The translations under genes and the position numbers were made by a program. Of a DNA stretch of 64,000 nt, positions 5,953-38,082 are shown one piece after another. The notes below the pieces were generated by a model. That model searched no databases. It was not told the DNA's origin and was given only the letters and a program-made list of their open reading frames with translations. Origin of the DNA: Escherichia coli (GTDB lineage: Bacteria > Pseudomonadota > Gammaproteobacteria > Enterobacterales > Enterobacteriaceae); NCBI RefSeq assembly GCF_048403405.1, contig NZ_CP183129.1. One strand, 5' to 3'. The stretch's first letter is position 1, and every line of letters begins with the position of its first letter.

Positions 5953-5981
5953 ACTATTACCACAACGGTAACTATTACCAC
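5953..5981 (+). repeat. Direct repeat ACTATTACCAC x2 (18-bp period) upstream of the terminase small subunit gene
   Basis: Two exact 11-mers at 5953-5963 and 5971-5981 between the terminator and the terS start. Confidence 0.5.
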
Positions 5982-5988
5982 GGTGGTT

Positions 5989-6585
5989 ATGATGCCTGCT
6001 GAACCTAAAACCTATAAACGCAAATCAACGCAATTTAAGCCGCTCACAGCAATGCAGGAGGCTTATTGCCAGTCATACATCAAAACGCCTGAAAACCAGA
6101 CTCAGGCAGCGATTAACGCAGGATTCTCCCCAAATACAGCGGCAGTTAAAGCCAGTGTCATGATGCGCGATGAACGCATTCAAAAACGGATTGCCGAGTT
6201 GATGGAGGAGCGCAACAAACGAATGCGCGTCAGTGCTGATTACGTTCTCATGCGCCTGGTGGAGATCGACCAGATGGACGTGATCGATATCCTCAACGAC
6301 GATGGGAGCCTTAAACCAATCCGCGAGTGGCCGAAAATCTGGCGCACTACGCTTAGTGGCTTTGATCTGTCATCGACCATCATGAACATGAACGAGGATT
6401 CGATAGAGACAATCCTCAAAAAAATTAAATGGCCTGACAAGGTGAAGAACCTCGAACTGATTGGTAAGCACGTCGACGTCAACGCATTCAAAGAACGCCT
6501 GGATGTTAATGTGAATGTGACAATTGCTGATCGCATAGCGGCAGCCAGGAAGCGACTCAAAGAACGTCAGGATGGTAATCAGTGA
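5989..6585 (+). CDS. Terminase small subunit
   Basis: Placed directly upstream of and overlapping the large terminase; helical DNA-binding-type N-terminus; ATG pair at 5989/5992 after GGTGG (upstream in-frame Thr-rich extension from 5911 judged non-coding). Confidence 0.55.
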   Translation: MMPAEPKTYKRKSTQFKPLTAMQEAYCQSYIKTPENQTQAAINAGFSPNTAAVKASVMMRDERIQKRIAELMEERNKRMRVSADYVLMRLVEIDQMDVIDILNDDGSLKPIREWPKIWRTTLSGFDLSSTIMNMNEDSIETILKKIKWPDKVKNLELIGKHVDVNAFKERLDVNVNVTIADRIAAARKRLKERQDGNQ

Positions 6586-8779: not shown

Positions 8780-9101
8780 AACGCTGAGAGCACTTAGCCT
8801 GTTAAGGCGCCACACTTTGTCGCGGCTCCATAAATGCTCTCATCGTTGCACCCTCGTCTCTTCCGAGGCGTCACACCGAATCGCCGGGATGGTGAATCCC
8901 CGTGCGCGGAATAAAACCGCTCGACTTGCACATTCCGGCTACCTGGTTCGTTTGCCCGAGCAAGTGAGGGTGCCCCTTAAACGTATCCAGACCGCTATCG
9001 ACGCATGTGCCATACACCGTACTGCTCAAAATAAAAGCTCACCCCACCTGTTCAATTTAACGACAAGCCAGTCAGGTTAATAACCGGAATGAACTCTTTA
9101 C

Positions 9102-9116
9102 TTACCTGAAGGGTAA
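9102..9116. promoter_or_regulatory. Palindrome TTACC-TGAAG-GGTAA (operator-like site 4) upstream of the head-gene operon
   Basis: 15-bp palindrome about 45 nt upstream of TATGTGGTT-N5-GGTAATA and the 9206 start. Confidence 0.45.
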
Positions 9117-9205
9117 TAATTGTGCGTTAAATGTCAACCACCTACGATAAATAAATCATATGTGGTTAAATTGGTAATAATTTAATTGCGTACGGAGTCA
9201 TTGAT

Positions 9206-18422: not shown

Positions 18423-21169
18423 TGCCTGTTGTTCCTACTACATCCGGACGTCAGGTGCAAAGTCGTGGTGTGCAAACCGGTGGTTTTCAGATCTTCGATG
18501 TTCCTCAAGCAGATCAGGTGCTGGCGAATGTCGCAGATCAGTATGCGGTGGCATATGGTGAAGCCAGGCAGAAAGCGAATGTTGCTATGGCCCAGGAGGC
18601 GTTACTGCAATTTAACCAATTTGCAGATGACCAGATTAACAACCCTGAAAGTGGGCTGATTTCTAAACAGGGTAAAAACGCTCTTGGTCAGAGTGACGCT
18701 GTTATGAAAAATATGCAGGAAAGGGCTCAGGCATTATTAGGCTCAATTCCTGAAAGTGAGGAAAGGAATAAATTATCCTTTCAACTCCAGCAGTCTATGC
18801 AGTCTTATTACAATCAGGCACGTCGATATGAAGTTGGGCAGTTTCAGCAATTCCAAGATCAAACGTATTTGTCAGGAAATGCATTGGCTGTCACTCAGTC
18901 TGCGGGGCTATATAGCGATAACCAAGCATTTGTCGATTTAGCCAAGCAGCGATTTGAATCTATTGATCAATACGCTGATGCGCATGGGCTTCCTGATGAG
19001 TGGCGTGTTCAGCAGAAAACTCAGCTCAAGGAACAAATGGGGCAGCAAGCATGGATAGGAAATATCGCTCAAAAATACAACGAGTTTCTTCAGGTTAATG
19101 GAGAGCCAGGGGATCTTGATGGTGTGAGTCGTGCAATATCACATGGTAATTCATTGGATGCTCGTGGTTTACGTAATAATAACCCTGGTAATATTGAAGC
19201 GAGCAAATCTAACCCGTGGGAAGGTCAGATCGGTAGCGATGGACGTTTTGCAACGTTTGCTACCCCTGAGCATGGAATCCGCGCGTTGGGTAAAAATATG
19301 TTGTCTTACCAGCGTCAAGGCTATGACACCGTTAGCGAGATTGTTAATCGCTATGCTCCGGCTAGTGATGGTAATAATACTGATGCTTATATTAGGGCAT
19401 TGTGTGGTGAGCTTGGTGTTGGGGAGAATGATCAGCTTGATATCTCTAACCCAAAGACACTAGCTGCTTTATGTGCTGGGATTATTAAACACGAAAATGG
19501 CAGTATGCCTTATAGCACCGAACAGCTTGAAACTGGTATCTCGGCAGCCCTTGGTCTAACTAACCTTGATTCACCTAAGCGTTATACAGGCAATGCGGCA
19601 TTTGATGCTATGAGCCCTCAAATGCAAATACAGGCATTGAGGCAGGCTAATGAGCTGAGAAATCAGTACCGCCAGCAGTATGCGGACCAGCTTAGCACCG
19701 TAGTTAAAGATGCATATTCAGCCCTTGATGAAGGATTGAAACCTGAGAAGTTACCTTCTGAGGACGATTTTATCCGGGCCAATGGTCCGCGCATTGGCGC
19801 TATGAAGTGGAAGGATATGCAGGCGCAGATACAATATGGAGGTGTCATTGGTGCCGCTAAAGACCTCACTCCAGAAGGACGACAAGACATTCTTGAACGT
19901 TTACGTCCACAGGATCCAAACGCTCCTGGATTTGCAGCTAACCAGCAACGCTGGGAGAAAATGCAGGCCAAATTTAAAGAGATGGATAGGGAGTGGGAGA
20001 TTCAGCAGGGAAGAAACAGGTTCGTGTCTTCAATGCAAAATAACTTCCCGCTGGACCCGAACGACAAAAACAATCAGGCAGCGGTAGACCGTTATTTCGC
20101 GCAGGATATCGCGCCTTCGTTTTCCATATCTGATCCGCAGAGCATCAATACACTGGTCACCGTCACAACTAAAAGCGGCATGATACCAACTCAGGTTAAA
20201 ACAATGCTTAACAGTGGAGCAACATCAAGAGATCCTGCGCTGGTTGTCCCGATGGCAAAATTCTACGGTCAGTTATTCGATAATAATCCGGCGGCAGCGG
20301 CAACACTTGATAAAAGTACGATGGCATTTTACGGCAAGGTTTACGATTATTCCCGCGCTGGCGTGCCGGAGGATAAGGCTGTTGATATGGCTTACAGCCA
20401 GGTGTTCCAACAGGATGACCGAATGAAACAGATGCTTTCCACTGCCATGCGAGACAAAAAATATGTCGCGGCGAGGGCAACTGCTGCACAAAATAACGCC
20501 AGCAGTCTGACTTCCTTTGGTTCGTGGTCTCCGGATATTACCGATCCAGGAAAATCAAATGCGGCCTATCAGCGAGATTACCAGACAATTTACGATGCTA
20601 ACTTTGTACAGACAGGTGGCGATGCAGAACAGGCTGAGAAAATGACCAATGCCATGATCAGAACCACCTGGGGAGTTTCTACGGTTAATGGCAAAGCAGA
20701 GGTTATGAAGTATGCACCTGAGGCATTGTACGGAGTAAATAATGGTGCTGGTAACTGGATACAGGGGCAGTGGGAGCAGGAAAAACGCGAGCTTAAATCA
20801 AAATCCTTTGGCGGTCCTCGCAGTGATACGGACTTAATACTTGTTTCTGATGGCCTTACGGCAAGGGATAGGAGTTATGCTGTTATGGTTTTACAGCCTG
20901 ACGCAAACGGAGCGATAGAACCGAGAAATTATATTGGAGAAAATGGTCTCCCTGTTCGTTTCAAGCCGGATCAGCTGACATCTCCAATGTACAGGCAAAC
21001 CATTAAGTTCCAGCAACAGCGTGTTGATGAGGCTAGAGTGCGGAGAGAAGGCAATCCGCTGCCGCAGTTCAGCAATAAAGATGGATATACTCCTCCAGAT
21101 CTGACCAAACCATTCGGTTATGGTTCAGCCAATTACCTTCCGAGCAATATATACGCAGGGGGCAAATAA
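18422..21169 (+). CDS. Internal virion / ejection protein (T7 gp15-like core protein)
   Basis: 915 aa, in the gp15 position; contains a conserved-looking block NNPGNIEASKSNPWEGQ...HGIRALGKNMLSY. Confidence 0.5.
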   Translation: MPVVPTTSGRQVQSRGVQTGGFQIFDVPQADQVLANVADQYAVAYGEARQKANVAMAQEALLQFNQFADDQINNPESGLISKQGKNALGQSDAVMKNMQERAQALLGSIPESEERNKLSFQLQQSMQSYYNQARRYEVGQFQQFQDQTYLSGNALAVTQSAGLYSDNQAFVDLAKQRFESIDQYADAHGLPDEWRVQQKTQLKEQMGQQAWIGNIAQKYNEFLQVNGEPGDLDGVSRAISHGNSLDARGLRNNNPGNIEASKSNPWEGQIGSDGRFATFATPEHGIRALGKNMLSYQRQGYDTVSEIVNRYAPASDGNNTDAYIRALCGELGVGENDQLDISNPKTLAALCAGIIKHENGSMPYSTEQLETGISAALGLTNLDSPKRYTGNAAFDAMSPQMQIQALRQANELRNQYRQQYADQLSTVVKDAYSALDEGLKPEKLPSEDDFIRANGPRIGAMKWKDMQAQIQYGGVIGAAKDLTPEGRQDILERLRPQDPNAPGFAANQQRWEKMQAKFKEMDREWEIQQGRNRFVSSMQNNFPLDPNDKNNQAAVDRYFAQDIAPSFSISDPQSINTLVTVTTKSGMIPTQVKTMLNSGATSRDPALVVPMAKFYGQLFDNNPAAAATLDKSTMAFYGKVYDYSRAGVPEDKAVDMAYSQVFQQDDRMKQMLSTAMRDKKYVAARATAAQNNASSLTSFGSWSPDITDPGKSNAAYQRDYQTIYDANFVQTGGDAEQAEKMTNAMIRTTWGVSTVNGKAEVMKYAPEALYGVNNGAGNWIQGQWEQEKRELKSKSFGGPRSDTDLILVSDGLTARDRSYAVMVLQPDANGAIEPRNYIGENGLPVRFKPDQLTSPMYRQTIKFQQQRVDEARVRREGNPLPQFSNKDGYTPPDLTKPFGYGSANYLPSNIYAGGK

Positions 21170-24559: not shown

Positions 24560-25411
24560 ATGAAAAAAATAAATTTGTTTTTTGGCATAGTGCTTTCAAT
24601 AGTCTCTGTAAATCCTACAGCTGCCAGTTCATTGCAATGCAATAAGGATAACTTTGATGCATGCAAAACGTGCGAACAATTATCAAAGGCTATCGACTTA
24701 AAAGAACCTAATCGTGGCGATTACTATAGAGGGGCTTTATGGAATGGGCTTTACGCCTCTTATGTAATTAATTGCCCTGTGGTTGCAGAGAAGTTACTGA
24801 GCCATGGTGCTATACCATCATATGGCGGATATATGGGGTCTATGGGGGCGGTTCTGACAGGAAAATGGCCTCATAACAATGAATCAATAAATCTTTCATG
24901 GGCAGATTTGCTTATAAAACATGGATTTGATGTTAATAGGCATACGGGGAATTATAAATCAGCTACTGAAGTATGGGCTATAGATAAAAAACAGATTGAA
25001 TATAAGTCAGTTTTTGACAAGTTAATTCAATCCAGCGAAGTAAAACCACTCGATCCTTCAAGAAATTTAGAATGGTGTGCGTCTGAAGGGTATCGCTCAG
25101 TTGTCGTTTATTCCCTTAACTCATGTATAGAAAATGCTATAAAACGTTTGGATGACGGTGTTTCTTCAGCGTCTGATATTTCATCAGCAGCCGTAAATTC
25201 CTGTACTAGCGATGTAGAAAATTTCAATAAGCATTTGGCATGCAAAGCAGCTGTTAAAGAAAACTCTGATAAAGAGAGAAGCAACGTTTACCAGTTATTA
25301 ACCAGTGATAGTCAAATGAATAAAAATGTTATTGATATGCTGAAGGAAAGAAATATTGAAACGGTTCTTGAATTTAGAGCTGAAAATCGATCAGCGAAAA
25401 CTGCACAGTGA
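24560..25411 (+). CDS. Secreted hypothetical protein with ankyrin-like repeats (moron), AT-rich
   Basis: Signal peptide MKKINLFFGIVLSIVSVNPTAAS; two ankyrin-like segments (...AEKLLSHGAIPS..., ...ADLLIKHGFDVN...); start 1 nt after the gp16-like stop; terminator follows. Confidence 0.55.
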   Translation: MKKINLFFGIVLSIVSVNPTAASSLQCNKDNFDACKTCEQLSKAIDLKEPNRGDYYRGALWNGLYASYVINCPVVAEKLLSHGAIPSYGGYMGSMGAVLTGKWPHNNESINLSWADLLIKHGFDVNRHTGNYKSATEVWAIDKKQIEYKSVFDKLIQSSEVKPLDPSRNLEWCASEGYRSVVVYSLNSCIENAIKRLDDGVSSASDISSAAVNSCTSDVENFNKHLACKAAVKENSDKERSNVYQLLTSDSQMNKNVIDMLKERNIETVLEFRAENRSAKTAQ

Positions 25412-26496: not shown

Positions 26497-26617
26497 ATGA
26501 ACCTCAACCAATCGACTTTACCAATCGGGTAATTTTAAACATGAGTATAATGCTTTTAACTGCAACGAGTGTAAACAATTATTGATAATTGTAGGCACAT
26601 CCCTGTGCCGCCGCCCG

Positions 26618-27310: not shown

Positions 27311-27669
27311 AGCGATCACCTTTGTAGTTAGGTTAATCACCACCGCTGAGACCAATCAGATGGTGGTGAACTGTGCAGAGTTGGTCTTACCGGCTACAAA
27401 GGAACCCGGCGCACCTTTCGGTGCCCCCACACAGCCCACCATAGAATAGGTGCGCTTTACACATAAAAAAACCGCTTATGCGGCATATGTGCCTCTGTAG
27501 TAATCCGGGAGACCAATCCCGGCACTGGATTTTGCCAGTGCCCGATTACTATGGCACAAGAGGAGTGCAATGTAAATTTACCGAAAAGGTAATAATAAAT
27601 GCATAACTCACGTTATTTCAACCCTATATGGTTTGATTTATCCCATTTCAGAAAATACCTGCCTATTTT

Positions 27670-27701: not shown

Positions 27702-27716
27702 TTTACCCTAGAGGTA
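27702..27716. promoter_or_regulatory. Palindrome TTACC-CTAGA-GGTAG (operator-like site 5, one arm imperfect)
   Basis: Lies between the -10 hexamer and the start codon, an operator-like position. Confidence 0.4.
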
Positions 27717-27717
27717 G

Positions 27718-28173
27718 TTGGGGGTGCCCGTGAACACGAAGAGAGCTACAGTAATGCAGCATTTGAGGAAATCAGAAAAAAATAAAGACCATGAAATATT
27801 GAGTAAGGCCATTGTTCGGGCTTCCAATAATACTGTTATACCTCATGCTGAAGAGTCTGGACAGAAATTTCTTATTCGGTATTTCACTGAAAATAGTGCA
27901 GTTGAGGAGATTTTAAAACATCAGGGAGGGGAATTTAAATGTGGAAAACTGGCAGATTATGTTCGTCGTGAAACGTCTGAACAAGAAGTATATTATGCTG
28001 ATATTAATCATAAGTCAGGTGTGAAAATTGTAATAGGCTATTACACAACTCCCAAAAATGTTATGCATGAGGTCCCAAAGATGTCCGTCGAGAAATCTCA
28101 TGCAATCTCGCGCAGGATGTTTGCACGCACTGCCGAAGATATGGCTCAGGAGCTCTACGACGATGCTGAATAA
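27718..28173 (+). CDS. Hypothetical protein with acidic C-terminus; candidate antitoxin/immunity partner of the downstream YafO-like gene (ATG alternative at ~27754)
   Basis: 151-aa ORF, AT-rich; its stop overlaps the start of the next gene (ATGCTGAATAA). Confidence 0.45.
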   Translation: MGVPVNTKRATVMQHLRKSEKNKDHEILSKAIVRASNNTVIPHAEESGQKFLIRYFTENSAVEEILKHQGGEFKCGKLADYVRRETSEQEVYYADINHKSGVKIVIGYYTTPKNVMHEVPKMSVEKSHAISRRMFARTAEDMAQELYDDAE

Positions 28174-28950: not shown

Positions 28951-29026
28951 CTTATCTTCTCCATGCAATAACTGTATGTTTATACAGTAACAAATAATTT
29001 GTTTGCTATCCAGCACGTTTTGCAAA

Positions 29027-29041
29027 TTACCTGAAAGGTAA
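29027..29041. promoter_or_regulatory. Palindrome TTACC-TGAAA-GGTAA (operator-like site 6) in the divergent region upstream of the tailspike gene
   Basis: Perfect palindrome; followed by ATATCTATTCGTA (also beside site 1) and TATGTGGTT-N5-GGTAATA. Confidence 0.45.
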
Positions 29042-29145
29042 TATCTATTCGTATTTACAGCCTTTCTATCCATATGTGGTTTTTCAGGTAATAGAATAAC
29101 CAGATATGCGGCGCAACGGGTGCTGCGACTATCTGGAGATTTAAC

Positions 29146-31797
29146 ATGACGGTCTCAACCGAAGTTGACCACAACGAATACACTGGTAACGGAGCTACGA
29201 CATCATTTCCGTATACCTTCCGTATTTTCAAAAAATCCGACCTGGTTGTTCAGGTGTCTGACCTGAACGGGAACGTAACAGAATTGGTTCTGGATACTGA
29301 CTACACAGTAACCAATGCTGGAGGATATAATGGCGGTAATGTAATTCTGTCGAAGGCGTTGGCTAACGGTTATCATATTTCTATATCACGAGAGCTCCCG
29401 GTTACGCAGGATACTGATTTGCGTAATCAGGGTAAGTTCTTCGCTGAGGTACATGAAGACGCGTTCGATAAACTGACAATGCTTATTCAAAAGTGTTTTT
29501 CATGGATGAGGTTAGCACTTATAAAACCAAGCATTCTGGCTAACTATTATGATGCAAAAAATAATAAGATATCAAATCTAGCAAATGCCACTGACAGAAA
29601 CGATGCTGTCAATAAAGGTTATGTTGATGATCTTTTTACTGGAGGTGTAACGCCTACACCTAACAGCGTTAAAAACGATATTTTTACAAATCACCAAAGA
29701 AAGATTGTAGCTACGATGCCGCTTCTTTTTCCTGAATATGATGCGATTATGGCTGCTAACCCGTCAGCAACTTATATGTATCCTCAAGGATTCTGCGTTA
29801 GCGAAGATTTGATATACATCACTTATCCATTTGAGCCTAAACAGACGAATAATGTCGTCGCAGTATTTAACATATCTGGTATTTATCAAGGTTATTTCTA
29901 TGTTCAGGCTGGCGGCCCAGGCTTCGCTGCTGAAGGAATCGTGGTTACGTCAGACTATGGCCCCAAAAAAATGTTTGTTGGTCACACAAACGGAATACTG
30001 CGTGAATTTAATATGGAGGGGGCATTATACGGAAGCAATCTGCCTCTTGTACAAAACCATGATGTTGGATTATTCAACCAGTTCAGCTACAGAAGAGGTA
30101 TATGGCTCGTTGAGCAGAATGCGCCAGAAGTAGGACAGAAAATCACAAGAACTGTACTTGCAGTGTTCGACAGTGGTTTCAATCGCCTGTCAACTATAAC
30201 GCTGCCGTTACATGATGTTGGGTATGTAACTAAAAGCACCTCACCTTATGCGCCTTATTTCAACAAGCGTCAGGGTATTGCGGTAGGTGATAACTACTTT
30301 GTCTGCGGCTATGGCGGCTTCATAGCTGATGGGGCAGGAAGCGCAGGATATAACGAATATCAGGGCAGCAAAGTTTTTAACCCTGACGGTACAAAGCGAA
30401 CTGAATCAATGCTTCATCCTCAGGCCATGATGGATTTAATGAAAGCCGCAGGATTGAACGTCACTCGCATAGAAAATGAAGGCGTTTGTGTTTCTCAGGA
30501 TGGAAAATCCATTTATTCACTTTACATTCATCAGGAAAGAACTGGCTCTGAACCTTACAATTCAGGTTTGGTTATTTTCGAAGATTTCTCCACTGATAAA
30601 GATGCTATCGATTTTACACCTGCATCCAGGCTTTACCGCGGATTTGATATCGATCACGCGAGCATTGGGGTATATCCCCGTAGTGCGAAGGGGATTGTTA
30701 ACCCTGTAGATGGTACGTTGTTCACTAACATGACTGAAATTCTTCGCTATATGCAGGAGATGAGTCAGAAGGCATTTAATTTTTACACAGGGACTGTCAG
30801 CATTGCTGATATATCTGGCGTGGCAATCCCTTCCAGCACATATGTTGAAATACTGAATGCGAATAATCAGACTTTTATAGTCAACTATTATTCATCTGAT
30901 AGTGGTATTAGTTATTTGGTTGCAACTAATCCTTCTGGTGACTTTGTATTTGTGCGCCAGCGACCGGCACAGTGGGCATCTAACTTAACCATTCAGCAAA
31001 ACGCAGATCCTGATACAAACCAATTAAACCGCATCACTGCATCATCATATGCCGGTGCAACTACAAACTCTCAGAAAATATTGGTCCTTGACCAGCAGGC
31101 TACAGCTAGCGCAAATAGCTTGGTATTGGGCGGTAGTTCTTCTGTGTTTAGGTCTGCCACCACGGTGGATATTGCATGCAACAGCGACCCGACAGCATTG
31201 GGAGGAACCATACGCTGGCGGTTTTATGATACAGGTCTTCGCCCGTTTGCTGACAATACCTATAATTTTGGTCAGGCATCGTTTCGTATTAAAGACGCCT
31301 ACTTTGCAAATGCCCCAACCGTTTCATCAGATGCCACGCTGAAAACCAATCCCGAGGCAATATCAGATTTAAGTGAAATGCTTTCTTCTGATAGAGACAG
31401 CATTCTTGATGCCTGGGGCGATATTTCTGTTGTGGCGTATCGATGGCTCGACGCTATATCCATGAAGGGCGATGGTGCCAGATGGCATTTTGGCGTCATG
31501 GCTCAGCAGGTAAGGGATGTATTCTTGGCGCACGGAATTGATGGAACCAGATTTGGCCTTCTTTGCTATGACGAGTGGGATGATATTTTTGAGCCGGTAA
31601 TCGCGACTAAAGAGATTACCGATACGTCTGGTGAGTTGGTCACCGTCGAATATGACACCGGAGAACAGAGGCTGGTTAAAAAAGCGGGTAGTTCATGGGG
31701 TATACGGCCTGACCAGTGCGCTTGGCTTGAGGCTGCATATCAGCGCCGTCGATGCGATCGTATTGAAGAGCGACTCGAACTATTGGAATCAAAATAA
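29146..31797 (+). CDS. Tailspike protein with epsilon15/CBA120-type N-terminal particle-binding domain and C-terminal self-cleaving intramolecular chaperone (peptidase S74-like) domain
   Basis: N-terminus MTVSTEVDHNEYTGNGATTSFPYTFRIFKKSDLVVQV as recalled for this tailspike family; C-terminal ~156 aa (from ~31327) with SDATLK, YRW, FGVMAQQV blocks typical of endosialidase-chaperone domains. Confidence 0.8.
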   Translation: MTVSTEVDHNEYTGNGATTSFPYTFRIFKKSDLVVQVSDLNGNVTELVLDTDYTVTNAGGYNGGNVILSKALANGYHISISRELPVTQDTDLRNQGKFFAEVHEDAFDKLTMLIQKCFSWMRLALIKPSILANYYDAKNNKISNLANATDRNDAVNKGYVDDLFTGGVTPTPNSVKNDIFTNHQRKIVATMPLLFPEYDAIMAANPSATYMYPQGFCVSEDLIYITYPFEPKQTNNVVAVFNISGIYQGYFYVQAGGPGFAAEGIVVTSDYGPKKMFVGHTNGILREFNMEGALYGSNLPLVQNHDVGLFNQFSYRRGIWLVEQNAPEVGQKITRTVLAVFDSGFNRLSTITLPLHDVGYVTKSTSPYAPYFNKRQGIAVGDNYFVCGYGGFIADGAGSAGYNEYQGSKVFNPDGTKRTESMLHPQAMMDLMKAAGLNVTRIENEGVCVSQDGKSIYSLYIHQERTGSEPYNSGLVIFEDFSTDKDAIDFTPASRLYRGFDIDHASIGVYPRSAKGIVNPVDGTLFTNMTEILRYMQEMSQKAFNFYTGTVSIADISGVAIPSSTYVEILNANNQTFIVNYYSSDSGISYLVATNPSGDFVFVRQRPAQWASNLTIQQNADPDTNQLNRITASSYAGATTNSQKILVLDQQATASANSLVLGGSSSVFRSATTVDIACNSDPTALGGTIRWRFYDTGLRPFADNTYNFGQASFRIKDAYFANAPTVSSDATLKTNPEAISDLSEMLSSDRDSILDAWGDISVVAYRWLDAISMKGDGARWHFGVMAQQVRDVFLAHGIDGTRFGLLCYDEWDDIFEPVIATKEITDTSGELVTVEYDTGEQRLVKKAGSSWGIRPDQCAWLEAAYQRRRCDRIEERLELLESK

Positions 31798-31828
31798 GAC
31801 CAAATTTAGGTAATTATTATCCGTAAAT

Positions 31829-31885
31829 GGTTTATTGTGTATGATGGACCTCATCTTCTAAGGGGGTTTTTATGCACAATAAACG
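31829..31885 (+). promoter_or_regulatory. Inverted repeat (GGTTTATTGTG ... CACAATAAACG) enclosing two mini-ORFs, between the tailspike and the lysis genes
   Basis: ~11-bp arms separated by ~35 nt containing ATGATGGACCTCATCTTCTAA (MMDLIF-stop) and ATGCACAATAAACGGTGGTTACCATGA (MHNKRWLP-stop). Confidence 0.3.
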
Positions 31886-31894
31886 GTGGTTACC

Positions 31895-32296
31895 ATGAAT
31901 GGCACGGTTACGGCGGATTCACTGAATCAAGGGTTAAGCTTGGGTGCGCTGGCCTCTGTCGTCTACGGCGTTCCGCCAGAGGTGGCTCTCGGTGCTCTGG
32001 CTGGTGCGGTAATATTTGTTACCTCTGCTGTAGAGTATCCTGTTCGTCGTCGTGTACTCTTGTCGATACTCAGCTTTCTTTGTGGTCTTCTCTTTTACAA
32101 ACCAACAACATCAATTCTTATCGGAATAGCCAGCATGATACCTACCATCACGCAGGACTCTTTCGAGAAAGGGATTGTTTTCTCTGCTGGCGCATTCGTG
32201 TCAGCAATTGTCGCAGTGCGAATTGGTATATGGCTCTATCACCGCTCCGATAATCCACGCGACTTAATTCAGGGGAGAAAAGGCGATGGTAACTAA
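31895..32296 (+). CDS. Multi-TM membrane protein (holin or antiholin-like)
   Basis: ATG at 31895 after GGTGG; about four predicted TM segments; directly upstream of the holin and endolysin genes. Confidence 0.45.
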   Translation: MNGTVTADSLNQGLSLGALASVVYGVPPEVALGALAGAVIFVTSAVEYPVRRRVLLSILSFLCGLLFYKPTTSILIGIASMIPTITQDSFEKGIVFSAGAFVSAIVAVRIGIWLYHRSDNPRDLIQGRKGDGN

Positions 32297-32594
32297 TGAG
32301 CTTGTTTTGCTTATCACCAATGCAATTATTTGTACTGGCATAGCAATTCGCGTTGTCACATTCCGGCGTAACGGCTCTCAACATCGAAGATGGGGAGGGT
32401 GGCTTGCTTATTTCCTTATTGTTGCTGCGGCCAGTATTCCTGTTCGAGTCGCCTATGCAATCTGGTTACGTACGCCAATGGCTGTGGATTTATCTGAGGT
32501 CATTATCAACGCTGTCATGCTTGCCGCGGTTATTAAAACACGCGGTAACGTTGTTCAGATTTTCAAAACATCGAGGTCTAAACATGGAGATTAA
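32286..32594 (+). CDS. Holin (three-TM class)
   Basis: 102 aa, three hydrophobic helices, charged C-terminus; overlaps the endolysin start. Confidence 0.55.
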
Positions 32595-33213
32595 ACAATT
32601 CCAGCGAGCTGCTGGTATTAGCGAGGCTCTGGCCGCACGCTGGTTCTCGCATATAACTTCTGCGATGAAAGAGTTTGGTATCAGAAAACCCGAAGATCAG
32701 GCAATGTTTATTGCTCAAGTCGGGCATGAGTCTGGGGGCTTCACTAGGTTGCAGGAGAATTTCAACTACAGCGTCACAGGACTGGCTAACTTTGTTCGGG
32801 CAGGACGTCTCACTCAGGGACAGGCCAACGCATTGGGGCGACGCGCAGGCGAACCACCATTGCCACTTGAGCGCCAGAGAGCGATTGCCAATCTGGTGTA
32901 CAGCAAACGCATGGGGAACAATGCCCCCGGCGATGGCTGGAATTACCGTGGCCGCGGACTTATCCAGATTACCGGTTTGAATAACTATCGTGATTGCGGA
33001 AACGGCCTGAAAGTGGACCTGCTGGAGAATCCTGAACTGTTGGCGCAGGACGAATACGCGGCTCGTAGCGCGGCGTGGTTCTTCTCCAGCAAAGGTTGCA
33101 TGAAGTATACCGGCGATATTGCACGTGTAACTCTGATTATCAATGGTGGCAGGAATGGCATCGACGACCGGCGCGCGCGGTACGTCACTGCCAGTAAGGT
33201 GCTGGCTGTATGA
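32584..33213 (+). CDS. Endolysin, glycoside hydrolase family 19 (chitinase-like lysozyme)
   Basis: Internal ATG at 32584; motifs [12 protein letters not shown] and [11 protein letters not shown] typical of GH19 endolysins (recalled). Confidence 0.8.
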
Positions 33214-33692
33214 TCTGGTCATTCGTAAAAGCATACCGTAAACAGTTGATTATCATGGCGGTGCTTGCTGTTCTGGTCATATCAGGAGTTGTTGCCTGGA
33301 ATGTGCACGGCAGTCGTCAGTACGACGCTGGGTATGCACAGGCGAAAGAAGACCGCAAAACCGAAGATGAGAGAGTTCGTCAGCACTACGAACAGGAGAA
33401 ATCGATCAATGAACGTGAAGCGCAGCAGAGGATCGACCAGGCGCGCAATGATGCTCTTGATGCTGCCGCTCGCGCTGGCCGGTTGCAGCAACAGCTCGTT
33501 GCCATCCGTGAGCAGCTCAGGCACTATAACGCCATTGTCGGCGCTGGGTCGTCAGCCGCAGACACCGGAGTTTTGCTTGCCGACGTGTTCAGCAAATCTC
33601 TCGAGAGAAATAGACAACTGGCAGAGTATGCTGACCGGGCAGCCGAAGCCGGAAGAGTCTGCGAAAAACAGTACGACACCCTGACCAGATAG
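33210..33692 (+). CDS. Rz-like i-spanin
   Basis: N-terminal TM anchor followed by charged coiled coil; start overlaps the endolysin stop (ATGA); contains an embedded +1-frame lipoprotein gene. Confidence 0.65.
33409..33684 (+). CDS. Rz1-like o-spanin (outer-membrane lipoprotein) embedded in the Rz frame
   Basis: +1-frame ORF with RBS AGGAGA; signal peptide ending in lipobox LALAGC; Pro/Ser-rich mature part. Confidence 0.55.
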   Translation: MNVKRSRGSTRRAMMLLMLPLALAGCSNSSLPSVSSSGTITPLSALGRQPQTPEFCLPTCSANLSREIDNWQSMLTGQPKPEESAKNSTTP

Positions 33693-33796: not shown

Positions 33797-33817
33797 TAAA
33801 TAATTGAGTGGGAATGA
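33797..33817 (+). other. guaA: Prophage right junction (attR region) carrying the orphan 3' end of guaA (ATT GAG TGG GAA TGA = IEWE-stop)
   Basis: In-frame stop TAA then ATA ATT GAG TGG GAA TGA; E. coli GuaA ends ...TIEWE (recalled); followed by a strong terminator and then yfgI, the K-12 neighbour of guaA. Confidence 0.45.
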
Positions 33818-33843
33818 TTTTGATCCCTGCACTATGAATGAAC

Positions 33844-34466: not shown

Positions 34467-34985
34467 TTAGCTCTTTTCAGGACATTTGGTATTTGGCTGA
34501 ATACGCGTTTCGTTATACGTCGTGGTAATAACAACGGCTAAACCTGTCGTAAACTGGCACTCTTTACCCACCTGGGTGGAGGTATACACTTTGGTGCCTT
34601 CCTTATACGTTAGAGAAACACCTTCCACTAAGGTTTTATCATTCACCATAGAACCCGCTGCCGCGCCAACAGCTCCGCCGCCAACTGCACCTGCCGTCGT
34701 TCCGGAATTGCTGCCAGACCCGACGTTGTGGCCAATAACACCGCCAGCGACTGCACCAATAAGCGCGCCGAAGGCTTGTGCGTTTCGTTTATTTTGGGAG
34801 TTGTCTACGGCAACTTTTGCGGGAAGAATGGAAATAATATTAACGGTTTTAGTTTCTTGTTTGGTATTCAGTTGAACGGTTTGATAAACATCGGCGGCAT
34901 GATCATCAGCATTTGACTGGCATCCTGCCAGAGTGAATGACGCTAACATTACCACAGGCAGAAGACATTTTTTAAATTTCATCAC
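34467..34985 (-). CDS. yfgH: YfgH, glycine-zipper outer-membrane lipoprotein
   Basis: 172 aa, lipobox LAGC, Gly-rich glycine-zipper segment. Confidence 0.85.
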   Translation of the reverse strand: MMKFKKCLLPVVMLASFTLAGCQSNADDHAADVYQTVQLNTKQETKTVNIISILPAKVAVDNSQNKRNAQAFGALIGAVAGGVIGHNVGSGSNSGTTAGAVGGGAVGAAAGSMVNDKTLVEGVSLTYKEGTKVYTSTQVGKECQFTTGLAVVITTTYNETRIQPNTKCPEKS

Positions 34986-35838: not shown

Positions 35839-38082
35839 ATGAAACTGAATGCAACTTATATAAAAATACGTGATAAATGGTGGGGGCTTCCGCTGTTCCT
35901 GCCTTCTTTAATCTTGCCCATTTTCGCCCACATTAATACTTTCGCGCATATTTCTTCCGGTGAGGTTTTTCTCTTTTATCTGCCTCTGGCTCTGATGATC
36001 AGCATGATGATGTTTTTCAGCTGGGCGGCATTGCCAGGGATCGCCTTAGGGATTTTTGTCCGCAAATATGCAGAGCTGGGTTTTTACGAAACGCTCTCAT
36101 TAACGGCTAATTTTATTATCATTATCATTCTCTGTTGGGGCGGTTACAGGGTCTTTACTCCCCGGCGTAACAACGTTTCACATGGTGATACCCGTTTAAT
36201 TTCCCAGCGTATATTCTGGCAGATTGTGTTTCCTGCAACGCTGTTTCTGATACTTTTCCAGTTTGCTGCGTTTGTAGGATTACTGGCGAGCAGAGAAAAT
36301 CTGGTCGGCGTCATGCCTTTTAATCTCGGGACCTTAATCAATTATCAGGCCTTACTGGTGGGCAATCTGATTGGTGTCCCGCTGTGCTACTTCATCATTC
36401 GTGTAGTGCGAAATCCGTTTTATTTACGTAGTTATTATTCGCAATTAAAACAGCAGGTTGATGTCAAAGTCACCAAAAAAGAGTTCGCACTCTGGCTACT
36501 GGCATTAGGTGCTTTACTGCTGCTGTTATGCATGCCGTTAAATGAAAAAAGCACAATTTTTAGCACCAACTATACCTTGTCATTATTGCTGCCCCTGATG
36601 ATGTGGGGAGCGATGCGCTATGGTTATAAGCTGATTTCGCTGCTCTGGGCGGTCGTGTTGATGATCAGCATCCACAGCTATCAAAATTACATTCCCATTT
36701 ATCCTGGCTATACCACGCAGCTGACCATAACCTCCTCCAGTTATCTGGTATTCTCTTTTATTGTCAATTATATGGCTGTACTGGCAACCCGTCAGAGAGC
36801 GGTTGTCAGACGCATTCAGCGGCTTGCGTATGTGGACCCGGTAGTTCATCTGCCAAATGTTCGCGCCCTGAATCGCGCGTTGCGTGATGCCCCCTGGTCT
36901 GCGCTTTGTTATTTACGCATCCCTGGCATGGAAATGCTGGTTAAGAACTATGGCATCATGCTGCGGATTCAATACAAGCAAAAACTTTCTCACTGGCTGT
37001 CACCCTTGCTGGAACCGGGTGAGGATGTTTATCAGCTTTCGGGTAACGATCTCGCGCTGCGACTGAATACAGAATCGCACCAGGAGCGCATTACCGAACT
37101 GGATAGCCATCTCAAGCAATTTCGTTTCTTTTGGGATGGAATGCCGATGCAACCGCAGATTGGCGTCAGTTACTGCTATGTGCGCTCGCCAGTGAATCAT
37201 ATCTACCTGCTGCTGGGAGAGCTAAATACGGTCGCCGAACTTTCCATCGTGACCAACGCCCCGGAAAATATGCAGCGTCGCGGGGCAATGTATTTGCAAC
37301 GCGAATTGAAAGATAAAGTCGCGATGATGAATCGACTACAGCAGGCGCTGGAACACAACCATTTTTTCCTGATGGCCCAGCCGATTACCGGTATGCGTGG
37401 CGATGTCTACCATGAAATTCTTCTGCGCATGAAAGGTGAGAATGATGAACTGATCAGCCCCGACAGCTTCTTGCCGGTCGCGCACGAATTTGGTTTATCG
37501 TCGAGTATCGACATGTGGGTCATTGAGCATGCGCTGCAATTTATGGCTGAAAACAGAGCGAAGATGCCCGCTCACCGTTTTGCCATTAATCTGTCGCCAA
37601 CCTCGGTATGTCAGGCTCGTTTTCCCGTTGAAGTCAGTCAGCTGCTGGCTAAATATCAAATTGAAGCGTGGCAACTTATTTTTGAAGTCACCGAAAGTAA
37701 TGCTCTGACAAATGTTAAGCAGGCGCAAATCACCTTGCAGCATCTTCAGGAATTAGGCTGCCAGATTGCGATTGATGATTTCGGCACCGGCTACGCCAGC
37801 TATGCGCGGCTTAAAAATGTGAATGCCGATCTGCTTAAAATTGACGGCAGTTTTATCCGCAATATTGTGTCAAATAGTCTGGATTATCAGATAGTGGCGT
37901 CGATTTGCCACCTGGCGCGAATGAAGAAAATGCGGGTAGTGGCAGAGTACGTTGAAAACGAAGAGATCCGCGAGGCGGTGCTCTCTTTGGGGATCGATTA
38001 TATGCAGGGTTATCTTATTGGTAAGCCGCAACCGTTAATTGATACGCTGAATGAAATCGAACCCATTCGCGAAAGTGCCTGA
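35839..38082 (+). CDS. pdeF: c-di-GMP phosphodiesterase PdeF (YfgF): membrane MASE1 domain, degenerate GGDEF, EAL
   Basis: 747 aa, N-terminal multi-TM region and C-terminal EAL signature; size and synteny match K-12. Confidence 0.9.
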   Translation: MKLNATYIKIRDKWWGLPLFLPSLILPIFAHINTFAHISSGEVFLFYLPLALMISMMMFFSWAALPGIALGIFVRKYAELGFYETLSLTANFIIIIILCWGGYRVFTPRRNNVSHGDTRLISQRIFWQIVFPATLFLILFQFAAFVGLLASRENLVGVMPFNLGTLINYQALLVGNLIGVPLCYFIIRVVRNPFYLRSYYSQLKQQVDVKVTKKEFALWLLALGALLLLLCMPLNEKSTIFSTNYTLSLLLPLMMWGAMRYGYKLISLLWAVVLMISIHSYQNYIPIYPGYTTQLTITSSSYLVFSFIVNYMAVLATRQRAVVRRIQRLAYVDPVVHLPNVRALNRALRDAPWSALCYLRIPGMEMLVKNYGIMLRIQYKQKLSHWLSPLLEPGEDVYQLSGNDLALRLNTESHQERITELDSHLKQFRFFWDGMPMQPQIGVSYCYVRSPVNHIYLLLGELNTVAELSIVTNAPENMQRRGAMYLQRELKDKVAMMNRLQQALEHNHFFLMAQPITGMRGDVYHEILLRMKGENDELISPDSFLPVAHEFGLSSSIDMWVIEHALQFMAENRAKMPAHRFAINLSPTSVCQARFPVEVSQLLAKYQIEAWQLIFEVTESNALTNVKQAQITLQHLQELGCQIAIDDFGTGYASYARLKNVNADLLKIDGSFIRNIVSNSLDYQIVASICHLARMKKMRVVAEYVENEEIREAVLSLGIDYMQGYLIGKPQPLIDTLNEIEPIRESA

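Follow-up and report, generated by a model that had tools for sequence, protein, structure and literature searches.

A conserved RNA hairpin before the first lysis gene of an epsilon15-like prophage: a candidate gate on holin translation

In the long transcripts of the phage T4 genes e (lysozyme), soc and 49, a hairpin masks the ribosome-binding site, and a late promoter lies inside that hairpin. Cleavage of the lambda N leader by RNase III unmasks the gene's own Shine-Dalgarno sequence, and in the mok/hok system the translation of a small membrane-damaging protein is dependent on an overlapping leader open reading frame (ORF). The mRNAs of type I toxins are kept inert through intramolecular structure until they are processed (PMC11228461), and RNase III, which accommodates about 22 base pairs (bp) of double-stranded RNA, makes double cuts in intramolecular stems (PMC6212723). 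In phage lambda, a stem-loop controls the access of ribosomes to a GGGGG Shine-Dalgarno sequence before the holin gene S, and thereby adjusts S translation and the time of lysis (bioRxiv 10.1101/2025.05.14.654169). Here we discuss an RNA hairpin at positions 31830-31884 of a stretch of 64,000 nucleotides (nt) of Escherichia coli DNA (contig NZ_CP183129.1; hereafter the window). The window is E. coli chromosome with an epsilon15-like (Uetakevirus) prophage, and the hairpin stands before the first, holin-family gene of the prophage lysis cassette.

The hairpin is of a familiar kind, and the annotation of the genus's type phage already contains a homologous feature, as a prediction. The epsilon15 record (NC_004775.2) carries a protein_bind entry for 'RNaseIII' and 'mRNA processing' at 24755-24817 (63 nt), one of six such predicted sites in that genome, which ends 7 nt 5′ of the homologous gene. 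The two sequences are about 85% identical and lie 7-11 nt 5′ of the same gene; the buried upstream ribosome-binding site and the covariation described below, in contrast, form no part of that label. What is added here is evidence for selection, from covariation and strand specificity, together with a conserved, masked upstream ribosome-binding site. The reading that we tentatively favour, with a little less than even confidence, is that of a cis-acting hairpin in the sense-strand mRNA, which would act post-transcriptionally to hold down or time the expression of the first holin-family gene.

A sequence-only reading of the window had described the element as an inverted repeat of about 11 bp, enclosing about 35 nt with two tiny ORFs. 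The repeat is present and the spacing between its arms is as described. Within the arms, GGTTTATTGTG (31829-31839) and CACAATAAACG (31875-31885), the exact complement comprises 10 bp (GTTTATTGTG, 31830-39, and CACAATAAAC, 31875-84), with the outermost G/G unpaired, and the helix as a whole is twice as long as the 11-bp repeat that had been described. A repeat search extended the inverted repeat to 13 nt at 92% complementarity (31830-42 / 31872-84). Only eight inverted repeats in the whole window, this one included, reach 13 nt or more within 60 nt. When folded as RNA with G.U pairs allowed, 31830-31884 forms a 15-bp outer stem, a U.U mismatch, a 7-bp inner stem and a 10-nt loop, or 22 bp in all. 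The outer stem, supported by both folds and pair counts, joins a 15-nt 5′ arm (GUUUAUUGUGUAUGA, 31830-31844, + strand) to a 3′ arm (UUAUGCACAAUAAAC, 31870-31884, + strand), and the apical part (31846-31869, + strand) consists of the inner stem, GGACCUC (31846-52) with GGGGUUU (31863-69), and the loop (31853-31862). The 3′ arm ends 11 nt 5′ of the holin ATG and directly abuts a weak Shine-Dalgarno sequence, GGUGG, in keeping with the position directly upstream of the first lysis gene that had been noted.

Structure prediction, one of the checks proposed with that reading, returned a stable hairpin: the 65-nt sequence has a folding free energy of -26.6 kcal/mol, against -11.3 ± 2.9 kcal/mol for shuffled sequences (z -5.3; 0/200). 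The hairpin matched no family in an Rfam scan of 31500-32300 at E values up to 10, in which the sole match was a chance small nucleolar RNA outside the element. Two other structural candidates were rejected. The inner stem is not a terminator: it has three G-C pairs and a 10-nt loop, was not called by a terminator scan, and has its U run paired in the outer stem. A fold of the window in which a far-upstream UUUAGGUAAUUAUUA pairs with UGGUGGUUACCAUGAA and occludes the Shine-Dalgarno sequence is not conserved in relatives.

The stability of the hairpin depends on the strand, and it is in the sense RNA alone that a helix of about 22 bp (24 bp in epsilon15) forms. The antisense strand of the window hairpin folds with -13.5 kcal/mol, about half the sense value, and that of the epsilon15 hairpin with -13.2 kcal/mol (z only -1.2) compared with -33.0 kcal/mol for the sense strand. 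This approximately two-fold difference is due to G.U pairs, and it argues for an RNA element that is read in the direction of the lysis genes rather than for a DNA palindrome. Strand specificity of this sort is unlike the symmetry of a DNA site, and speaks against a role at the DNA level, either as a divergent promoter/operator for lysogenic-conversion genes or as a conserved recombination boundary of the lysis module, a reading that we regard as improbable and to which we return below.

Relatives of the locus were collected by a DNA pattern search, which gave 120 viral contigs, and by a search with the holin protein, which was blind to the hairpin and gave 80 viral loci and a further 12 loci from one-genome-per-species contigs. 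Conservation in related phages, the other check that was run, is extensive: the hairpin is kept, with covariation, in eight enterobacterial genera (Escherichia, Salmonella, Klebsiella, Enterobacter, Citrobacter, Pseudocitrobacter, 'Ca. Erwinia dacicola' and Pseudescherichia). The more distant cassettes of Samsonia (47% protein identity), Hafnia and Edwardsiella (about 33-39%) lack it and add no covariation. The Hafnia phage yong2 has a classical terminator, ccccagtttaggctggggtttttt, ~120 nt upstream of its holin relative (L210 1360-1500), which is preceded by a GGAG Shine-Dalgarno sequence, and the Edwardsiella prophage leaders (L220-L223) form different, G+C-rich folds.

Among the relatives that carry the hairpin, a leader of ~95 nt precedes the lysis cassette regardless of the gene upstream. 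The 5′ neighbours of this leader are oac, gtrA or O-antigen genes on the opposite strand in phiV10, SPN1S, Tyrion, BUCT554 and epsilon15, an acetyltransferase gene on the same strand in TL-2011b and PAS61, small ORFs in EC.W1-9, and a tail fibre gene followed by a small hypothetical ORF in a Klebsiella phage. Downstream of the hairpin, the window is ~80% identical to phiV10, TL-2011b, SPN1S and epsilon15, and the exact locus is present in 17-18 of 5,426 complete E. coli genomes; E. coli 2/0 (NZ_CP023853) is a strain that has it. A covariance-model search, rerun at an E value of 1e-8 after a threshold of 0.01 had drawn weak antisense matches, found exactly one sense-strand copy per locus, window included, and the minimum-free-energy fold contains the hairpin in 60 of 60 distinct leaders anchored on the holin protein. 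These comparisons indicate that the hairpin is part of the lysis module and subject to selection.

Nucleotide diversity (pi), computed over 78 distinct sequences, is 0.106 in the 5′ arm, 0.148 in the 3′ arm and 0.26 in the apical part; the corresponding values are 0.34 and 0.09 at third and first codon positions of the holin gene, and about 0.6 upstream of position -78. The stems are therefore ~3-fold less variable than the holin third codon positions, a pattern that points to purifying selection on them, and a passive recombination boundary would show no such three-fold excess of conservation over synonymous sites. In an unfitted alignment of 41 sequences, 93.4% of the cells were paired and compensatory change was seen in six pairs, with 22 cells changed on both sides against 6.9 in shuffles (0/500). 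In a model-fitted alignment of 61 distinct sequences, 93.1% of the cells were paired, compared with 37-55% when the partners were slid, and eight of the 21 pairs had changed on both sides (36 such cells against 9.4 in shuffles; 0/500). The fitted alignment is biased towards the structure, and the unfitted count agrees with it. RNAalifold on a plain MAFFT alignment recovered only 11 pairs because the apical part was out of register there, and was replaced by a hand-specified structure (for the unfitted count) and by the covariance-model-fitted alignment. Most compensatory changes fall in inner-stem pairs (C-G to U-A and others). Pair 2, usually U-A, appears as an A.A mismatch in L214 and L216 and is restored as A-U in L218. 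Such changes keep the pairing and not the sequence, as would hardly be expected of an element read as DNA.

The two short ORFs had been taken as a possible leader peptide, and both exist. The first (MMDLIF*, ATGATGGACCTCATCTTCTAA, 31842-31862, + strand) is probably not a real feature: we judge it spurious because it has no Shine-Dalgarno sequence and is conserved neither in length nor in frame, its TAA being out of frame in most relatives and the resulting lengths unrelated. The second (MHNKRWLP*, ATGCACAATAAACGGTGGTTACCATGA, 31872-31898, + strand; hereafter the upstream ORF) is not enclosed by the repeat as had been stated. It begins within the repeat, with its AUG paired in the outer stem, crosses the whole 3′ arm, and reads across the Shine-Dalgarno sequence and start codon of the holin gene, where its TGA overlaps the holin ATG at 31895 (ATGA). 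A Shine-Dalgarno-like AAGGGGG (31860-31866, + strand) lies 5 nt 5′ of its AUG and is half buried in the inner stem.

This upstream ribosome-binding site is a conserved part of the element. All lineages but one have a Shine-Dalgarno sequence 5-8 nt 5′ of the upstream AUG, mostly AAGGGGG, AAGGAGG, CAGGAGG or GAAGAGG, with weaker purine-rich forms such as AAGTGAG in a few, and Shine-Dalgarno sequence and AUG are kept together in 58 of the 61 distinct sequences. The three AUG positions are constant, their partners in the 5′ arm vary (A to G nine times, U to C four times), and the U.G wobble opposite the G of the AUG is never 'repaired' on the AUG side. The encoded peptide, by contrast, is unconserved (MHNKRWLP, MHSKRW, MHSKRWSLCQLS, MHINGGKHVSSTNQ and MYKKNGVCYVG are examples). 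It is 6-14 codons long, starts at -23, -22 or -25 relative to the holin AUG, and is in a different frame in two lineages; without exception, its stop codon lies between -2 and +23 of the holin AUG. Any role of the upstream ORF would lie in ribosome traffic and not in peptide sensing. Given its conserved Shine-Dalgarno sequence and AUG, it may act as a leader ORF.

The holin gene itself starts weakly, with GGUGG at 31885-89 and ATG at 31895-97 (together 31885-31897, + strand); this region, TAAACGGTGG, is invariant in the five named phages that were aligned first and nearly so in the larger set. As predicted from sequence, the arrangement is that of a coupled upstream ORF, with its own Shine-Dalgarno sequence and a stop at or near the start of a gene whose Shine-Dalgarno sequence is weak. 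An in-frame GTG at 31886, 9 nt 5′ of the holin ATG (GTG GTT ACC ATG), mimics a dual-start motif and is present in most lineages as part of the invariant CGGTGG. Lacking a Shine-Dalgarno sequence of its own, it would contribute MVT, MVA or MEN, with neither Lys nor Arg and hence no extra positive charge, and is probably unused. A dual start of the lambda S type, with extra positive charge, was thus not found at the holin start. The resemblance to lambda S lies in the stem-loop just 5′ of the holin start, which occludes a G-rich Shine-Dalgarno sequence, here the half-buried AAGGGGG. The lambda stem (sdi), however, is short (nt -21 to -7) and splits initiation between the in-frame Met1 and Met3, whereas here a 22-bp helix masks the start of an out-of-frame upstream ORF.

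In the full leader, the predicted probability that the upstream AUG is unpaired is 0.00-0.01, and it rises to 0.4-0.65 without the 5′ arm. In the gate that we favour, ribosomes would not load on the upstream ORF as long as the helix is intact, and holin translation would depend on the weak GGUGG beside a bulky helix. Removal of the helix would let ribosomes enter the upstream ORF; having terminated at the holin start, they would begin translation anew at that codon (translational coupling). A block against read-through is needed in cases such as PAS61, where a lysogen-expressed conversion moron (accessory gene) lies upstream on the same strand without a predicted terminator. The arrangement recalls mok-hok, with its small membrane-damaging protein, overlapping leader ORF and structured mRNA, but no antisense RNA partner was found here, and the locus is a phage late operon rather than a toxin-antitoxin locus.

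One set of sequences, group C (L141, L157, L172 and L180; about 1123-1212), is a natural variant useful for the coupling model. It lacks the upstream Shine-Dalgarno sequence and AUG, and has the holin GGUGG replaced by AGGAG. The flank motif described below and a 9-bp lower stem are kept, the latter through two compensated pairs (GUUUACUAU/AUAGUAAAC), and the upper hairpin is unrelated and interrupted (9+5+5 bp).

Several points weigh against the gate. The accessibility of the holin Shine-Dalgarno sequence and AUG (0.24-0.6) is barely altered when the hairpin is removed; since it is the upstream AUG that is freed, the helix masks the upstream ribosome-binding site and not that of the holin, direct masking is weak, and the gate depends on an unproven coupling step. 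In one lineage only has an upstream ORF been exchanged for a strong Shine-Dalgarno sequence. The sequences are only modestly diverse, with at least 69% identity among most holin proteins, so that the covariation counts include inherited changes. The RNaseIII label in epsilon15, being a prediction, lends no experimental support, and no experimental work on the hairpin was found in the literature on RNase III, holin and lysis-cassette leaders or SPC32H operators. Finally, a central double cut by RNase III in a helix of 22-24 bp would fall at or near the upstream AUG.

The last point bears on the chief alternative, which we consider possible though clearly less likely than the gate: the hairpin would be purely a processing site for RNase III, whose cut separates the lysis mRNA from upstream RNA and sets its stability, with the buried Shine-Dalgarno sequence and AUG incidental. 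The RNA cut away would be tailspike message or antisense moron RNA. Cleavage in vivo is itself probable, as judged from the modelled fold, because the helix is as large as the substrates of E. coli RNase III (about 20-22 bp or more): 15 + 7 bp in the window and a continuous 22 + 2 bp in epsilon15. Among known systems, RNase III leader sites in general, such as those of the lambda N leader and between T7 genes, are close counterparts. The enzyme, whose staggered double cut leaves 2-nt 3′ overhangs, prefers a G-C or C-G pair between the two cuts and no antideterminant pairs in the proximal and distal boxes. The epsilon15 helix has A-U/U-A at its exact centre and G-C pairs 2-4 bp lower (pairs 8 and 10), so that agreement with these preferences would depend on the register of the cut. 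The epsilon15 annotation, the continuous helix, the position at a boundary between transcription modules and the specificity for the sense strand are all in accord with pure processing. It leaves unexplained, however, why the AUG and purine tract on the 3′ side are invariant opposite varying partners, and why a strong holin Shine-Dalgarno sequence was gained in the lineage without the upstream site. Group C, moreover, retains the element despite its interrupted helix. As a central cut would remove the upstream ORF and not expose it, RNase III alone fails to explain the conservation of the masked site. Under the favoured reading, a cut may open the gate, or may trim or destabilise the lysis mRNA; unlike in the lambda N leader, the holin's own Shine-Dalgarno sequence lies outside the helix.

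A second alternative is modelled on T4 gene e. The hairpin would contain a promoter, with its -10 hexamer in the 5′ arm (TATGAT, 31840-45, or TATTGT, 31833-38), that starts transcripts inside the helix; these would lack the 5′ arm and be translated, and read-through transcripts with both arms would stay silent. Combined with coupling through the upstream ORF and with the CATATGTGGTT motif discussed below, this would make a read-through-proof lysis cassette in a temperate podovirus; both the promoter and this fuller version of it are unlikely in our estimate. If it were true, read-through RNA (tailspike message, or conversion-gene RNA in the lysogen) would stay locked, coupled holin translation included. 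The parallel with gene e extends to the connection with lysis, to a ribosome-binding site that a hairpin buries in read-through RNA and to -10-like hexamers in the 5′ arm, but here the internal promoter is only a candidate and the masked site belongs to an upstream ORF. In phiV10 the match is 10/12 (TTAACC-17-TATAAT, with the -10 in the 5′ arm), and at the other position GTAACA-17-TATAGT or TATCAT is found in PAS61 (9/12) and group B. The spacing from TATGAT to Shine-Dalgarno sequence to AUG resembles that of an ordinary gene start, and the leader is the only conserved upstream sequence. In epsilon15 and TL-2011b a terminator separates the late genes from the lysis cassette, so that a promoter or antitermination is needed there. 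A nested promoter would, in addition, account for the covariation and the conserved masked ribosome-binding site alike. The window itself, on the other hand, offers only an 8/12 match (TTATCC-17-TATGAT), and a promoter scan around the hairpin called no promoter on the + strand, its sole match being on the - strand. The -10-like hexamers occupy no single conserved position and are missing from group E. Such matches are common in A+T-rich DNA (shuffle means of 0.9-2.8 per region) and do not exceed the shuffles, and in epsilon15 the transcript could just as well come from an operator-linked promoter ~95 nt upstream.

The 5′ flank of the hairpin holds further signals. A motif TTATCCGTAAATGGTTTA (31817-31834, + strand), which overlaps the base of the stem, has a pi of 0.23, against about 0.6 further upstream, and is a copy of an operon-start motif, ~wCATATGTGGTTw. 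On the + strand this motif is repeated in the gaps between genes that immediately precede rightward operons (portal operon, 27718 ORF, tailspike and lysis cassette), with exact copies in the window at 9157-9167 and 29071-29081 and variants at 253-263, 27623-27633 and 31824-31834; epsilon15 (L127) has copies at 2988-2998, 24751-24761, 19940-19950 and 35953-35963. The exact 11-mer CATATGTGGTT occurs twice in each genome, compared with an estimated 0.02 or so by chance, and the 14-mer form with up to three mismatches gives 12 matches against 4.2 expected (0/100 shuffles). With up to two mismatches CATATGTGGTT shows no overall enrichment, and only the exact or near-exact copies and the 14-mer stand out. 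The motif may belong to a promoter, or may be an element of the initial 20-30 nt of the transcript.

In most cases a repressor operator, ATTACC-N5-GGTAAT, is located 28-30 or 39-40 nt upstream of the motif. This operator, which bears the label 'repressor' in epsilon15, has 18 matches at up to two mismatches, against 1.8 expected. In the window, operators lie at 229-245, 2132-2148, 2194-2210, 5956-5990, 9101-9117, 26517-26533, 27577-27593, 27702-27718 and 29026-29042. A perfect copy stands upstream of the tailspike gene, and the lysis leader retains only a GGTAAT half-site (31809-14), which suggests that the lysis genes here may depend on the tailspike promoter. In epsilon15, an unannotated operator-like TTTACCATATGGGTAAT is found ~30 nt upstream of the lysis-leader motif. 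In the tailspike leader of the window, CATATGTGGTT (29071-81) pairs with AACCAGATATG (29098-108) over 11 bp with one mismatch, presenting a GGTAAT half-operator in a 16-nt loop, and the portal-operon leader reads TTAAATT-GGTAAT-AATTTAA (about 9166-9185). Hairpins that present GGUAAU may thus be a recurring feature of late leaders; that of the tailspike leader is not conserved in the epsilon15 tail-fibre leader.

The recurrent motif and the repressor half-site in the flank are among the observations that fit an element acting at the DNA level. Leftward sigma-70-like matches also overlap the 5′ arm, which contains their -35 hexamers: TACACA-17-AATAAT in the window (31841..31813, - strand) and TACACA-16-TAAAAT in phiV10 (L001 1541..1512). 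In many relatives an oac or gtr gene begins just upstream and reads leftward, and in phiV10-type phages these sequence matches could drive such divergent conversion genes. There is no leftward gene in the window, for which reason its match may be a relic, and the hairpin is equally conserved in the window, TL-2011b and PAS61, all without such a gene. Homology to other phages does begin close by, 6 nt past the tailspike stop, as a recombination boundary would have it. The similarity to phiV10, SPN1S and epsilon15 sets in across a mosaic junction at 31795-31803, and the left edge of the lysis-module leader (31803-31814, + strand), where phiV10/SPN1S homology starts at 31803, includes the half-site. 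The C-terminal part of the tailspike has no match in these three phages, and in relatives O-antigen-conversion morons are inserted at the equivalent junction, which looks like an exchange hotspot for receptor-binding and serotype-conversion modules.

The sequence-only reading had suggested that a leader-peptide or attenuator structure could control the timing of holin and endolysin expression. Since a conserved RNA structure immediately precedes the first lysis gene, a role in holin and endolysin control is plausible, though not by attenuation. An attenuator of the trp type, in which translation of a mini-ORF chooses between a terminator and an antiterminator hairpin, has in its favour a short ORF with a Shine-Dalgarno sequence that overlaps a stable hairpin upstream of an operon. 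The hairpin is followed, however, by GGUGGUUACCAUG, without a U tract; no + strand terminator was called in 31000-33000, and with no terminator after the hairpin this mechanism is unsupported. One fold dominates in the 60 leaders folded, whose minimum-free-energy structures include no competing terminator/antiterminator fold, suboptimal folds not having been searched. Nor does the mini-ORF start upstream of the helix, but within it, and it has no conserved codons or frame. The anatomy of the element contradicts this mechanism, which we hold to be very improbable.

The genes around the hairpin are those of the right end of the prophage. A TAA stop at 31795-97 closes the tailspike-like gene (29146-31797). 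The first lysis gene (31895-32296, + strand) encodes a holin-family protein of 133 amino acids (Pfam Phage_holin_8, 6e-12; PHROG 198, holin; RefSeq 'putative holin'), with three transmembrane helices according to the phiV10 and epsilon15 annotation. The rest of the cassette (32286-33692, + strand), assigned from the window genes and the annotation of phiV10, SPN1S and epsilon15, comprises a Phage_holin_3_7 holin (32286-32594, + strand), a GH19 endolysin (about 32584-33213, + strand) and an Rz-like spanin with an embedded Rz1. Beyond it, an attP/attR core, ATTGAGTGGGAATGATT (33803-33819), lies inside a 25-nt imperfect inverted repeat (33763-87 / 33797-821); the same sequence has been identified as attP (PMC9782041), and its position makes the lysis cassette the right end of the prophage. 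After the core come a terminator-like repeat (33835-55 / 33860-80) that has a T run and, in the host DNA beyond, an ORF on the - strand (34467-34985) with a signal-peptide/lipobox-like start.

Holin dosage sets the timing of lysis, and leaky holin expression kills lysogens. A conserved gate on lysis would therefore be relevant to widespread serotype-converting prophages, among them the E. coli O157 phage phiV10 and the Salmonella phages epsilon15 and SPN1S, and it would matter to those who engineer these phages, which are used as reporter and biocontrol chassis. With the masked upstream ribosome-binding site, the vague label of an 'RNase III site' becomes a testable model of a translational gate.

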